A stretch of 64,000 nt of DNA from Escherichia phage W115. Below, piece after piece: positions 54,181 through 58,681 of the stretch. The first letter of the stretch is position 1, and every line of letters begins with the position of its first letter. Location: sequence record ON286974; one strand, 5' to 3'. Position numbers and translations under genes: made by a program. The notes below the pieces were generated by a model. It searched no databases and was not told the origin of the DNA. It saw nothing but the letters and a program-made list of their open reading frames with translations.

Positions 54181-54420
54181 ATGGTCTATAATATCGTCAT
54201 TGGTGCTTTGTCTAGTTTCGGAATGAAACTATTATCAAAGTTAATTAGTGAAAAGATGCTCACTAAAATTTTCTTCTACTGCGCTCGTCGTCTTGCGGCC
54301 TATACCAATACGCCAATTGATGATCGTTTTGTGGAAGAACTTTATAAGGAGTTTAATAAAGATCAATCAGAAGATAGCAACGAGCAAGATAAACCTAGTG
54401 ATAGTCAAGTACCTAAATAA
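54181..54420 (+). CDS. hypothetical small protein (79 aa) at the position of gene 38
   Basis: Strong TAAGGAG RBS; hydrophobic N-terminus, acidic C-terminus. Confidence 0.45.
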   Translation: MVYNIVIGALSSFGMKLLSKLISEKMLTKIFFYCARRLAAYTNTPIDDRFVEELYKEFNKDQSEDSNEQDKPSDSQVPK

Positions 54421-55110: not shown

Positions 55111-55116
55111 CTTAAA

Positions 55117-55149
55117 AGGGGAAGCCTTTCGGCCTCCCCTTCTTTTTTA
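55117..55149. terminator. bidirectional rho-independent terminator after t
   Basis: Hairpin ggggaagcc-tttc-ggcctcccc with T-run; A-run on other side. Confidence 0.65.
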
Positions 55150-55395
55150 TTGGCGCATAGAAGCCCCTGAATCACATTTTGACGCTGTATGATGAAAACA
55201 TGTAGCGTACCAGTCATCGGCTTGTTTGTCTTCGTCAGAAAACGCGTAATTTCGTTGTATACCGTTTTCTACTTTGACCAGTGCGATAGCTGTTTCTGGA
55301 AGATCAATCAATCGGACAAAATCGCCATCTTCCCATTCTACACGAGCAATATCATAGCCCATCTCAAAGTATACAATCGCTTGTTCTAATTTCAT
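55147..55395 (-). CDS. DUF2829-like small protein (Tad2-like candidate)
   Basis: 82 aa; N-terminal LEQAIVYFEMGYDIARVEW and C-terminal KQADDW resemble the DUF2829 signature. Confidence 0.4.
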   Translation of the reverse strand: MKLEQAIVYFEMGYDIARVEWEDGDFVRLIDLPETAIALVKVENGIQRNYAFSDEDKQADDWYATCFHHTASKCDSGASMRQ

Positions 55396-55721
55396 TCTGG
55401 AAACTTCCCGTAAACATTCTCTGCCAACTTACGTGCATCTTTTACAATATCTTTCATGTAATGGCTATAATTTTTAGCTAAATCAATGATGCAATCAACA
55501 AAGAAGTAATAGCGTCGCAGTGCTACCAGCTCAACATCTTCAAGATGACCATTTTCCCCAATCGCTGAAATATGTTTAAATTCCTTTCGGATCGCGTCCA
55601 TCGCTACATTAACTTCTTTTATAATATCTTTCGTATTATATGCACCTCGACTAATCAAAATTTTGGTTAGGTCTTCTGCTTTTTCGTGAAAGTTGTCAAT
55701 TTCAAACTCGATCATAATCAC
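55392..55721 (-). CDS. hypothetical protein (109 aa), paralog of 55830..56162
   Basis: Both proteins share the architecture and the C-terminal ENVYGKF/ENIFGKF motif. Confidence 0.45.
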   Translation of the reverse strand: MIMIEFEIDNFHEKAEDLTKILISRGAYNTKDIIKEVNVAMDAIRKEFKHISAIGENGHLEDVELVALRRYYFFVDCIIDLAKNYSHYMKDIVKDARKLAENVYGKFPE

Positions 55722-55829
55722 CTCTCATAATTTCACGCTGTTGTGTCAACATTTTTTCGTGGTTTGCTAATTCTATACATTGTAATAGCATAACCAGTGC
55801 AATTTTCAATGATTCATCATCTTTCATAA

Positions 55830-56162
55830 TCAAAATTTACCGAAAATATTCTCTGTCATAATTCTTGCTTCGTCGATTATTTTCGTCATGTTCATGGTGT
55901 AGTTATGATCATTTAGTGCCTTAATGACAACGAGCAAGGAATCTAAAAACACTCGATACCGGGTATATTCTACGCTATTTGTGAATACCGATGTTTTCTC
56001 TACTTTATCGATCAGATAGCCTAAAGCCGATAGCGCCTCGTTTACTTCCCTTGTTACTTTATCGGCGCTAAACAACACCGGATAAAGACGCGGTGTGATT
56101 AACCGCGCTGCCTCTTTCAATTCGGTCGCTTTCCATGATTCATATTTGTCATAGTTAAACAT
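55830..56162 (-). CDS. hypothetical protein (110 aa), paralog of 55392..55721
   Basis: See paralog. Confidence 0.45.
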   Translation of the reverse strand: MFNYDKYESWKATELKEAARLITPRLYPVLFSADKVTREVNEALSALGYLIDKVEKTSVFTNSVEYTRYRVFLDSLLVVIKALNDHNYTMNMTKIIDEARIMTENIFGKF

Positions 56163-56174
56163 TGTATAATCTCC

Positions 56175-56507
56175 TTACAGATGAAAACCTGTTACGATCA
56201 CCGCATCGATCATACCGCTAGGAATAAACGGTTCGCCCTCTTTTATTTCAACTTTGAATTGATGCCATTTCGCTAATACTTCTTCCGGTACACCCAGCGA
56301 TTCGGCGTCTGCTTTAGTTTCATCCATAATCCAACTAGGCTGCATGAGAGCATAGTTTACATAGTCCATTTCTGGGGTCATGTCATCAATGTTAATATAT
56401 TTGCAGTTGACGCGTTTCAGAATTTCAAATTCTTTATTGTCAACCTGTACCATGTATAATTCAGTAGTTTCTGGAATCAGTTCCCACACAATCAGTACAT
56501 TTTTCAT
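56175..56507 (-). CDS. hypothetical protein (110 aa)
   Basis: Track ORF. Confidence 0.4.
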   Translation of the reverse strand: MKNVLIVWELIPETTELYMVQVDNKEFEILKRVNCKYINIDDMTPEMDYVNYALMQPSWIMDETKADAESLGVPEEVLAKWHQFKVEIKEGEPFIPSGMIDAVIVTGFHL

Positions 56508-56515
56508 AGTTCACC

Positions 56516-56884
56516 TCACTTAACAAAGATTTTCTTTAATGCTTTCAGGATCGTTGCTTCCGGCGCTTCTTCCGGTGGAGGAAGCAATTCTACCACTTCC
56601 TCTTCCAACTCGATATAGTCTACCAGATATTCTACATAGAATGCAAGTGCTTCCATGAAATTAGATGCTACATCCGATTCACCACAAGCGCCTACATGCA
56701 TTGTATAAACATCACTGCGATCAAGTTTGTGGATGCTTCCCAGATAGTTTCGGTTATACCAGACTTCCCACACTTTCAGCTTTCCGGTTTTGGTTGCTGT
56801 TTTATAATCGGTTTCGTAATGATGCAATTGACGTTGCAAATCATTGATAATAACACATTTTTCGTAATTGTTTTGAATTTCCAT
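56516..56884 (-). CDS. hypothetical protein (122 aa)
   Basis: Track ORF. Confidence 0.4.
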   Translation of the reverse strand: MEIQNNYEKCVIINDLQRQLHHYETDYKTATKTGKLKVWEVWYNRNYLGSIHKLDRSDVYTMHVGACGESDVASNFMEALAFYVEYLVDYIELEEEVVELLPPPEEAPEATILKALKKIFVK

Positions 56885-56894
56885 GATGTAATCC

Positions 56895-57086
56895 TCACTT
56901 ATCGTTAAGAAGTTCTAAAACTTTCTGTCGTACTTTGTCAATATTAGTTGATTCAAAAACTGTACGGTATCCCCAGCTTTGACCGTATGAGCGGTTGCAA
57001 TCTCCATATCCCCATTGTTCAACCTGGTAGTATTCAAGGAATGGATGCTGCCGAACTATGATACCATCGCGATTAAAAATTACCAT
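56895..57086 (-). CDS. hypothetical small protein (63 aa)
   Basis: Track ORF. Confidence 0.35.
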   Translation of the reverse strand: MVIFNRDGIIVRQHPFLEYYQVEQWGYGDCNRSYGQSWGYRTVFESTNIDKVRQKVLELLNDK

Positions 57087-57109
57087 AATATAATCCTCAC
57101 GTCAACAAC

Positions 57110-57403
57110 TTATTTTCGGTTGTGGTCGCGATATGTTTTAAAATATCCCTCGTACCACGGTAAAATATCTGGATTTTTACCACTATACAGACCTTTAACC
57201 ATCATGTCAATAAGGCCATCTGGTGTCTGATAGTTTCCAGCTTTTATAAGCTCTCTGATTAAAATCTCTCTGTATATGTCTTTCGGATCTTCGTAATCAA
57301 CTTGTATTGTGGTTGTGGTTGTGGTCTCATTCAATTTGGTTTCTGGAGTATCTCGCATTGCATCCCACCAATCTTTTGTGACCTTCATGTTATTGAATTG
57401 CAT
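57110..57403 (-). CDS. hypothetical protein (97 aa)
   Basis: Track ORF with Thr-rich linker. Confidence 0.4.
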   Translation of the reverse strand: MQFNNMKVTKDWWDAMRDTPETKLNETTTTTTIQVDYEDPKDIYREILIRELIKAGNYQTPDGLIDMMVKGLYSGKNPDILPWYEGYFKTYRDHNRK

Positions 57404-57414
57404 AATTTAACCTC

Positions 57415-58173
57415 TTACTTGCAAACGTATTGATCTACATCAATTGCGCCACCGAATGTAGGATGACGTTTTTCAAATCGAATAGTTCCGTCGTTTGGTT
57501 CGAAAACGGAGTATTCATATAGATCTTTCTTGCCAACATTCTTATAAAACCCGCCTTTAGTCATAACGGTTTCTTGTACGTTTGCTTTGTGTACGTTGTA
57601 TTCATCAATGTATACAAAATCAACCATCTTCCCATTTTTAATGGTTACTTTAAGATCCCCTGGCTGGTTTCCATATTTTGCATACAGTGGAGCCTCTTTA
57701 ATTTTGGTGGAAATTCCATCTTTCATACTCCACTCATAACGAACGGTGCATTGATAGGTAAAAGTTTCAACCTTCGGTTCTTCCACCACTTTTTCTTCCT
57801 GTTTCGGTTGTTCTTCGTCAACCTTCACGGAAGTCTCTGAATCGCTTTCTGACGCGGTCTCTTCTTTAGGTAATACATTCATCAAGTTTTGGATTTGAGC
57901 GTTGTATACAGCCTCCAGTGGCTGAATCTGCCCGATATTGATCATTGTATCACGAACAGTTTTATTCCAGTTGCGTTGCTCTTGTTTCAGAGACGGATCA
58001 ATCTTAACAGCTTTAACATATACTTCATGAAGTTTAGAGTCCAGTGCGGAGATAGACTCATTAGAACAAATAAACTTCTCTGATTTGGTAGTAGCTTTAG
58101 CGCAATCAAAGGACGCAGCGTTAGCACCGAAAGCAGTAGCAGAAAGAACGATAGCAGCGATAATGTTTTTCAT
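57415..58173 (-). CDS. secreted protein with LprI-like (DUF1311) N-terminal domain
   Basis: 252 aa; signal peptide MKNIIAAIVLSATAFGANA; FDCAKATTKSEKFICSNESISALDSKLHEVY ... QEQRNW pattern of DUF1311; acidic linker; Cys-flanked beta-rich C-terminal domain. Confidence 0.5.
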   Translation of the reverse strand: MKNIIAAIVLSATAFGANAASFDCAKATTKSEKFICSNESISALDSKLHEVYVKAVKIDPSLKQEQRNWNKTVRDTMINIGQIQPLEAVYNAQIQNLMNVLPKEETASESDSETSVKVDEEQPKQEEKVVEEPKVETFTYQCTVRYEWSMKDGISTKIKEAPLYAKYGNQPGDLKVTIKNGKMVDFVYIDEYNVHKANVQETVMTKGGFYKNVGKKDLYEYSVFEPNDGTIRFEKRHPTFGGAIDVDQYVCK

Positions 58174-58242
58174 AATATATTCCTCAGTGTTTTGTCTTGA
58201 TGGGAGTATCTTACTACTCCCTTAATCCGGTGTCAACTATTT

Positions 58243-58398
58243 TTAAATTTCTTCTACAGTAAAGTCTTCAATGTTATTGTGCTCGGAGAACGTTGCCAGA
58301 CCAGCATTCCATGCATCATCCTCAGAGAAGAATACACCGTAACGTTCATATCCTTTAGCGCCTTCAAATTTAACCATTAATTTGTGAGTATGTTTCAT
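58243..58398 (-). CDS. hypothetical small protein (51 aa)
   Basis: True start MKHTHKLMVKF...; track N-terminus is PeSL promoter. Confidence 0.35.
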   Translation of the reverse strand: MKHTHKLMVKFEGAKGYERYGVFFSEDDAWNAGLATFSEHNNIEDFTVEEI

Positions 58399-58468
58399 TT
58401 TGATTCTCCTTCGTTGTCTTGATGAGTTCATTGTAGGGGATCGCCGATCCCCTGTCAACAACTATTTT

Positions 58469-58681
58469 TTAATTTTTACCCGCTCGTGCATTAATACGCA
58501 TTTTCTGAATAGCCATGATCTGGCTTACTGCTTCTTCTTTACGTTCTTGCGTGATAACGTGACCAGATTCCGCAAACTCTCCCGCAACTTCTTCTACGAT
58601 CTCGCGAACTTGAGAACGTCCAAAGATGCGGTTTCCTTCGTAGCTCATAAACTCGGTTACTACTTGCTCGATAGATTTCAT
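58469..58681 (-). CDS. hypothetical protein (70 aa)
   Basis: Track ORF with GGAGAA RBS. Confidence 0.4.
   Translation of the reverse strand: MKSIEQVVTEFMSYEGNRIFGRSQVREIVEEVAGEFAESGHVITQERKEEAVSQIMAIQKMRINARAGKN

Follow-up and report, generated by a model that had tools for sequence, protein, structure and literature searches.

A divergent Tad2-fold protein encoded at the end of a probable early operon in RB49-like coliphages

An 82-amino-acid (aa) protein of RB49-like coliphages is a divergent variant of the Tad2 fold, a domain call that UniRef already carries, and its putative ligand-binding positions depart from those of the characterised Tad2 proteins. The reading that we rank as most likely, with a probability of about 0.45, is that of an early-expressed protein acting as a signal sponge of altered specificity; a Tad2 fold repurposed for a task other than trapping a signal is a serious rival. 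Among the families of phage signal sponges, Tad2 is the most widespread and the most versatile, and we know of no member that has been studied in T4-like coliphages. The DNA analysed here, referred to as the window, is a stretch of 64,000 nucleotides from Escherichia phage W115 (sequence record ON286974), a Krischvirus, i.e. an RB49-like T4-type coliphage.

Results

A small gene conserved among Krischvirus records

The open reading frame (ORF) starts with ATG on the minus strand, encodes 82 aa and occupies exactly positions 55147..55395 in the ORF listing, which bears out the first-pass annotation of this DNA. The encoded protein is MKLEQAIVYFEMGYDIARVEWEDGDFVRLIDLPETAIALVKVENGIQRNYAFSDEDKQADDWYATCFHHTASKCDSGASMRQ. 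The N-terminal string quoted in that annotation is present, directly after M-K, but the protein does not end in KQADDW as had been stated: KQADDW corresponds to residues 57-62, and the β-strand WYATCF and a tail of about 15 aa come after it. The features of the locus are as follows.

55114..55143, both strands: bidirectional terminator hairpin, common to holin t (plus) and the Tad2-like gene (minus), predicted by RNA folding
55147..55395, minus strand: Tad2-like gene, stop codon 55147-55149; PF11195/DUF2829; ortholog of RB49p255 / NP_891826.1
55150..55194, minus strand: C-terminal tail HHTASKCDSGASMRQ, residues 68-82, predicted to be disordered
55207..55395, minus strand: Pfam Tad2-like match, residues 1-63 on model positions 1-71 of 73
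55392..58173, minus strand: eight upstream genes, from ORF coordinates and PHROG and Pfam results
58195..58245, minus strand: putative PeSL (promoter-early stem-loop), promoter scan 10/12, stem-loop fold z -2.5

The protein is 100% identical (tblastn) to RB49p255 (NP_891826.1), which carries the label ‘hypothetical protein’ in the RB49 GenBank record. The ORF is present and intact in 58/58 Krischvirus records, at 97.6-100% aa identity, and the 4.2 kb surrounding the gene are 96-98.5% identical to the 20 listed of the 58 matching records, FL37, TB34 and RB49 among them. All nucleotide differences are synonymous, seven of seven relative to RB49 and five of five relative to TB34. P0001, the representative of the Krischvirus cluster, carries C74Y and A78D, both within the C-terminal tail. 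Length and motifs are kept in two homologs from metagenomes, of 59% and 49% identity. The latter occurs with the same synteny in a T4-like contig that is divergent (L003), where the order is topoisomerase, Y16F, two phrog_9457 paralogs and the Tad2-like gene, the latter converging on holin T.

That the ORF arose by chance, or is a decaying and functionless remnant, can be set aside almost entirely: AT-rich phage DNA does yield many spurious ORFs of similar size, and the existence of a truncated 40-aa version means that losing the gene may be tolerated, but the synonymous nature of all 12 nucleotide differences from two relatives, the intact state of the gene in every one of the 58 genomes, the retention of length, motifs and synteny in homologs of 49-59% identity, the significant profile match and the ATGA overlap with the upstream gene all speak against it. 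The 82-aa ORF is a true gene, conserved in the RB49-like (Krischvirus) coliphages. The 40-aa version, P0006, is a frameshifted form on a 165-kb contig and reflects either a sequencing error or natural gene loss. P0002 (83 aa) was considered as a C-terminal variant and rejected: its tail is almost the same as the translated antisense ORF of this locus, which makes it a fold-back assembly chimera.

The Tad2-like gene is the last of nine in a putative early operon

Nine close-packed genes run on the minus strand from 58173 to 55147, separated by gaps of at most 23 nt or overlapping one another, and the Tad2-like gene is the last of them; its start codon overlaps the stop codon of the upstream gene (ATGA). 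It had been described as the first gene of its block after the holin terminator, which holds true only in map order, holin t being on the opposite (plus) strand and convergent with it. The eight genes upstream encode a 252-aa secreted LprI-domain protein, ORFs of 97, 63, 122 and 110 aa, and two phrog_9457 paralogs with a 43-aa ORF between them. In the divergent contig L003, too, a phrog_9457 pair precedes the Tad2-like gene.

Two of these neighbours deserve a description of their own. The phrog_9457 paralogs (minus strand, 55392-55721 and 55830-56162) are 110 and 109 aa in length and 26% identical (E 8e-8), and the one nearer the Tad2-like gene is the one that overlaps the start codon of the latter. 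The 252-aa product of the first gene of the operon (minus strand, 57415-58173) resembles a signal peptide at its N-terminus and contains an LprI (lysozyme inhibitor) domain that scores 23.6 bits against a Pfam cut-off of 22; a secreted lysozyme-inhibitor-like protein is unusual content for an early phage operon.

The PeSL ahead of the nine-gene block is composed of an AT-rich tract, TTGACA-17-TAAGAT at 58236-58208, a GGGAGTA/TACTCCC stem-loop over the -10 element, and then GAGGA and ATG. PeSL elements were described, and assayed as promoters and terminators, by Arbiol et al. 2010 (PMC2839356), and the element found here agrees with that description, as expected from the first-pass proposal of a PeSL-driven block. 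The gaps between genes leave no space for a further PeSL inside the block. The PeSL at 58195..58245 most likely drives all nine genes. Two further promoter-like sequences were observed on the minus strand. A strong sigma70-like site, TTGACA-17-TATAGT (11/12), lies at 57182-57210 inside the 97-aa gene and may be an internal promoter for the distal operon. A second PeSL (58420-58470), one gene further upstream, has TTGACA, a GGGGATCggcGATCCCC stem-loop between -35 and -10, and TACAAT (11/12), and drives a 51-aa ORF.

At the other end of the block, the hairpin at 55114-55143 folds on the minus strand at -23.8 kcal/mol, with a 13-bp stem followed by UUUUAAGUU (z -5.0); on the plus (holin) strand it is less stable, at -16.8 kcal/mol, and is followed by UUCUUUUUU (z -3.5). 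In the annotation of phage TB34, a terminator is placed at the same position. The Tad2-like gene is on the same strand as topoisomerase gene 52, and near it on that strand there is no T4-type late promoter (TATAAATA), which would have matched the late class of its Klebsiella relatives (see below). Together, the PeSL upstream and the lack of a late-promoter consensus nearby on this strand indicate that the Tad2-like gene is most likely transcribed early. PeSL regions have been characterised as hyperplastic zones of non-essential adaptive ORFans (PMC2839356), and an early PeSL context within such a zone would fit an early counter-defence gene.

On the plus strand, between the distal tail-fibre gene and holin t, a 79-aa ORF (54181-54420) belongs to phrog_402; RB49 annotates an internal start of it as ‘Dc5’. 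The product of its same-position counterpart in L003 carries PF26925 (Phage_PM2_Gpl). Its product in the window is probably a small membrane protein that belongs to the lysis or the tail-fibre module.

Marginal profile scores, but very probable homology to Tad2

The Pfam model PF11195 (Tad2-like, formerly DUF2829) gives the 82-aa protein 27.9 bits, the gathering score being 25 (E 3.4e-6). The first-pass annotation, which had quoted terminal motifs in placing the protein in DUF2829, had made that placement depend on a significant profile match; one above the gathering score was found, and the placement is further upheld by the profile-profile and structure comparisons below. Canonical Tad2 proteins score 86-98 bits (85.8 for SPO1 Tad2, 97.5 for a 72-aa canonical member), and the match of the 82-aa protein to the family is, on its sequence, marginal. 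P0004 and P0005 likewise pass the PF11195 cut-off.

An exhaustive phmmer search of the full library yielded only four real relatives. P0003, P0007 and P0008 also gave phmmer E-values of 1e-9 to 1e-14, but these are long proteins in which six to eight weak stretches are summed, and they were treated as spurious. The one of the three whose sequence was inspected, P0007, is a tandem-repeat protein, a class for which whole-sequence E-values mislead. A seeded profile search recovered 237 family members, and the family alignment analysed here comprises 104 members and is dominated by canonical Tad2. Within this alignment the 82-aa protein, P0001, P0004, P0005 (located on a T4-like contig) and six Klebsiella proteins constitute a ten-member subclade whose members share derived residues at otherwise near-invariant positions. 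Five residues are invariant across all 104 aligned members: R18, W21, D56, D61 and W62 in the numbering of the 82-aa protein, i.e. the R, the W of WN, the D of TD and the final D-W. When the subclade profile was aligned to 36 canonical members using hhalign, a full-length match was obtained (E 2.5e-5, probability 75%).

Neither the protein by itself nor a 4-sequence profile matched anything in searches of PDB sequences. The 104-sequence profile did match Tad2 entries; being dominated by canonical Tad2, this profile does not provide independent evidence. NCBIfam has no model for the family. In UniRef the orthologs are automatically named ‘Thoeris anti-defense 2-like domain-containing protein’, so the domain call made here is correct but not new. 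Taken as a whole, these comparisons make it very probable that the 82-aa protein is homologous to Tad2. Our literature search returned nothing relevant linking RB49 or Krischvirus to Tad2, Thoeris, CBASS or Pycsar, and nothing under the locus tag or accession.

A predicted Tad2 fold with a shortened β2-β3 link and a disordered tail

An AlphaFold model computed with the 104-sequence alignment has a pLDDT of 83.9, and its top 17 Foldseek matches in the PDB are all Tad2, with TM scores of 0.66-0.79. Because that alignment consists mostly of canonical Tad2, a control model was computed with the nine subclade sequences only. Its pLDDT is 76.9 and the order of its secondary-structure elements is the same; a Foldseek search with the control model returned nothing significant, and Tad2 was not recovered. 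The predicted elements are α1 (3-11), β1 (14-18), β2 (26-32), β3 (36-43), β4 (46-49), α3 (54-58) and β5 (62-67), the last extending 4 residues beyond the stretch matched by Pfam (residues 1-63). According to these models, the 82-aa protein is a Tad2 fold of α1, an antiparallel β-sheet, α3 and β5. The link between β2 and β3 is about 4 residues long (32-35) and α2 is absent from both models. The C-terminal tail falls below a pLDDT of 50 at residues 72-81 in the 104-sequence model and at residues 71-73 and 75-82 in the control model. It has no counterpart in canonical Tad2; the tails of P0004 and P0005 are similar in length and different in sequence.

The closest named system is SPO1 Tad2 (gp34.65; PDB 8SME/8SMF/8SMG), the founding 3'cADPR/2'cADPR sponge of PF11195, the sequence of which was recovered from the SPO1 genome. 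In the course of that search, SPO1 gp0.9 and gp34.72 were also translated and found not to be Tad2. SPO1 Tad2 is the best Foldseek match of the 82-aa protein model (TM 0.69). Both are small phage proteins with the element order α1, β1, β2, β3, β4, α3, β5, and they share the family-invariant R, W, D and D-W. Their sequences are nevertheless only 17% identical in the alignment and 14-18% in structure alignments, and the 82-aa protein differs further by its extra 15-residue C-terminal tail, predicted to be disordered, and by a net charge of -8 as against -3 for SPO1 Tad2.

The ligand-binding positions of Tad2 are extensively replaced

SPO1 Tad2 binds 3'cADPR between protomers: W25 and W73 provide stacking, N26 and D79 contact phosphates and hydroxyls, T78, I63 and T65 contact the adenine, and D67, H71 and S76 contact waters. 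Of these ten residues contacting 3'cADPR or its waters, only a W, an S and a D are identical in the 82-aa protein.

SPO1 W25: W21 in the 82-aa protein, identical
SPO1 N26: E22, acidic replacement
SPO1 I63: V40, conservative
SPO1 T65: V42, replaced
SPO1 D67: N44, replaced
SPO1 H71: R48, replaced
SPO1 W73: Y50, conservative
SPO1 S76: S53, identical
SPO1 T78: E55, acidic replacement
SPO1 D79: D56, identical

The motifs in which these residues lie have changed as well. WNGK and PW..SQTD are common to all four characterised Tad2 proteins (SPO1, Spt, Hgm and Mod), and in the 104-sequence alignment the conservation of N, G and K in WNGK is 89% or more at each position. In the 82-aa protein, the WNGK loop is replaced by W21-E22-D23-G24, and PW..SQTD becomes N49-Y50-A-F-S53-D54-E55-D56, with S and D kept and W changed to Y; P49 is replaced by N, W50 by Y, Q54 by D and T55 by E, all at positions with 90% or higher conservation in the family. 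The ligand diphosphate is bound in HgmTad2 by the Asn (N22) and by the backbone of the next Gly, and it is this glycine that D23 replaces. With the Asn/Gly diphosphate sites now acidic, the ligand diphosphate should be repelled. W21, Y50 and D56 are invariant in the subclade, despite its members being only 28-49% identical to the 82-aa protein. Such invariance in a divergent subclade would be expected if some pocket or interface were still under selection and, as far as can be judged from the residues, some pocket may survive.

The second major change is the loss of the 24-residue insertion between β2 and β3 (SPO1 residues 36-59), which is cut to about 4 residues. In SPO1 Tad2 this insertion carries helix α2 and the V-shaped dimer interface; in HgmTad2 and MoTad2 it builds a second pocket, for cyclic nucleotides. 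Since the insertion is missing, the second (cyclic di-/mononucleotide) pocket cannot exist in the 82-aa protein, and since helix α2, the V-dimer element, is missing with it, a tetramer may not form. ModTad2/MoTad2 (PDB 8V3E, 9EIB) and HgmTad2/AcrIIA7 (PDB 8KBI) are homologs that bind other or additional ligands (His-ADPR, cUMP/cCMP, cGG/cGAMP) and show that the fold tolerates a change of ligand. They keep WNGK and W..S..D, whereas the 82-aa protein has WEDG; their extra pocket depends on the long β2-β3 insertion, so that the CBASS/Pycsar inhibition route would not be available to the 82-aa protein. Ligand use is highly plastic across Tad2 homologs, the reported ligands being 3'cADPR, His-ADPR, N7-cADPR, cUMP/cCMP and cyclic dinucleotides (PMC12393519), which provides a precedent for altered specificity.

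Thirdly, the protein is strongly acidic (net charge -8, pI 4.46), as is the whole subclade (-6 to -12), while the median net charge of canonical Tad2 is -1 (98 members). The known sponges share a positively charged pocket, and this trait has served to discover new ones; they are sought as short (<100 aa) homo-oligomers with such a pocket (PMC12265669). At 82 aa the protein is short enough; at the sequence level, its pocket positions gain E22, D23, D54 and E55, and these residues, together with the net charge of -8, point away from a positive pocket. As for the first-pass proposal of a Tad2-type sponge directed against Thoeris, the Tad2-like fold stood, but the step to a Thoeris sponge is partly contradicted by the pocket residues, the missing insertion and the acidity.

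Klebsiella relatives are linked to tailspike genes

Outside the T4-like phages, the nearest relatives of the 82-aa protein (28-34% identity) are mini Tad2-like proteins of Klebsiella phages and prophages (P0009 and P0011-P0015; e.g. UVX30944.1 of phage VLCpiP4a). They resemble it in their minimal architecture, in the derived motifs W-[VD]-[DE] and Y-x-P-T-D-x-D, in their strong acidity and in their marginal Pfam scores (16.8-26.5 bits), and differ in being 68-72 aa long and in having no C-terminal tail. They also differ in genomic setting: the Klebsiella genes directly follow a tailspike gene in a late/structural region, whereas the Krischvirus gene is in an early operon. The start of every Klebsiella member lies 1 nt inside the tailspike stop codon (L004:2953-3159; L008-L010:6001-6216; L011:5001-5216), in contexts as different as prophages (where holin and endolysin follow), a lytic N4-like phage (flanked by two tail proteins) and a metagenomic contig. 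The tailspikes of a prophage and of the unrelated lytic N4-like phage differ at their N-termini but share 95% identity over the C-terminal 615 residues, and a third tailspike, 46% identical overall, has the same final residues. Because the C-terminal module is conserved across contexts, module and small gene appear to move together, and the linkage may mean either that an accessory gene is hitch-hiking or that the two are functionally tied.

This linkage lends weight to the possibility that the Tad2 fold has been repurposed for a non-sponge role in protein-protein interaction or charge mimicry, e.g. as a host-protein inhibitor or an acidic decoy or, if the function is common to the Klebsiella relatives, as a tailspike- or tail-fibre-linked factor. 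We consider such repurposing a real possibility and a serious rival. The acidity of the protein and of its subclade relative to canonical Tad2, the disappearance of the canonical phosphate-binding residues, the fixed position of the Klebsiella genes in all three contexts and the conservation of the adjoining tailspike modules across unrelated phage and prophage are all in line with it, and the Krischvirus gene, too, borders the distal tail-fibre and holin module. However, the Krischvirus gene does so on the opposite, early strand, in a PeSL operon with no late-promoter consensus; the invariance in the subclade of the counterparts of the two pocket-wall aromatics and the ribose-binding Asp is easier to explain if a pocket has been kept; and the flanks of tail-fibre genes commonly host accessory genes, so that hitch-hiking may account for the linkage. 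To our knowledge, no Tad2-fold protein acts as a chaperone or DNA mimic, which also counts against repurposing.

Discussion

The altered-specificity sponge, which we rank first among the readings considered, would operate as follows. As the product of the distal gene of a PeSL-driven operon, the 82-aa protein would be made from the first minutes of infection. It would assemble into a homo-oligomer through helix α1, and a small-molecule immune signal of the host would be trapped in an inter-protomer pocket with W21 and Y50 as walls, closed by S53 and D56. The trapped signal would then be unable to activate its defence effector. With WEDG in place of WNGK, Glu in place of the adenine-contacting Thr, and no insertion, the ligand is probably not bound in the way that SPO1 Tad2 binds 3'cADPR.

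E. coli strains natively carry TIR-signalling systems, e.g. type VI Thoeris, the signal of which is 2'cADPR (bioRxiv 2025.12.03.692087). T4 TadIV-1 (Vs.3), the N7-cADPR sponge of T-even phages, is a small Straboviridae protein that counters an E. coli TIR-signalling system by sequestration (PMC13243611), and would be a functional analogue if the 82-aa protein is a sponge. It differs in having no recognizable protein domain, in being a dimer and in forming its pocket from an N-terminal flexible loop (PMC13243611). Identity of the two was considered and rejected, the two being taken as unrelated proteins.

We regard it as quite unlikely that the 82-aa protein is a canonical Tad2, i.e. a homotetramer that sequesters 3'cADPR (1''-3' gcADPR) and thereby blocks type I Thoeris. 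Family and fold are the same, W21, S53 and D56 correspond to SPO1 W25, S76 and D79, V40 and Y50 are conservative for I63 and W73, and type I Thoeris is inhibited by most of the Tad2 homologs put to the test (bioRxiv 2024.01.03.573942). A survey of Tad2 catalogued 2,783 homologs and tested 18. Set against a canonical role are, in SPO1 numbering, Glu in place of N26 and T78 and Val in place of T65, the altered WNGK and PW..SQTD motifs, the missing α2 dimer element and the acidic pocket positions.

A broader and rather doubtful proposal is that the Krischvirus and Klebsiella-phage proteins make up a distinct clade, an ‘acidic-pocket mini-Tad2’, which would either sequester a signal outside the range of the known sponges or have a task other than that of a sponge, connected with tailspike modules. 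The signal of such a clade could be a cationic, zwitterionic or metal-bridged ADPR derivative, such as canonical cADPR, which Tad1 and MoTad2 reportedly failed to block.

If this acidic, minimal version still traps a signal, it would be the smallest working Tad2 scaffold and would reveal the extent to which the Tad2 pocket can be rebuilt. It could then also be used as a probe to isolate an immune signal of E. coli or Klebsiella, in the way that ModTad2 led to His-ADPR. Should it trap no signal, it would be a warning that “Thoeris anti-defense 2-like”, as an automatic name, promises too much function for proteins at the margin of the family. In both cases the practical importance is modest, concerning one accessory gene in a phage genus that is used for therapy.
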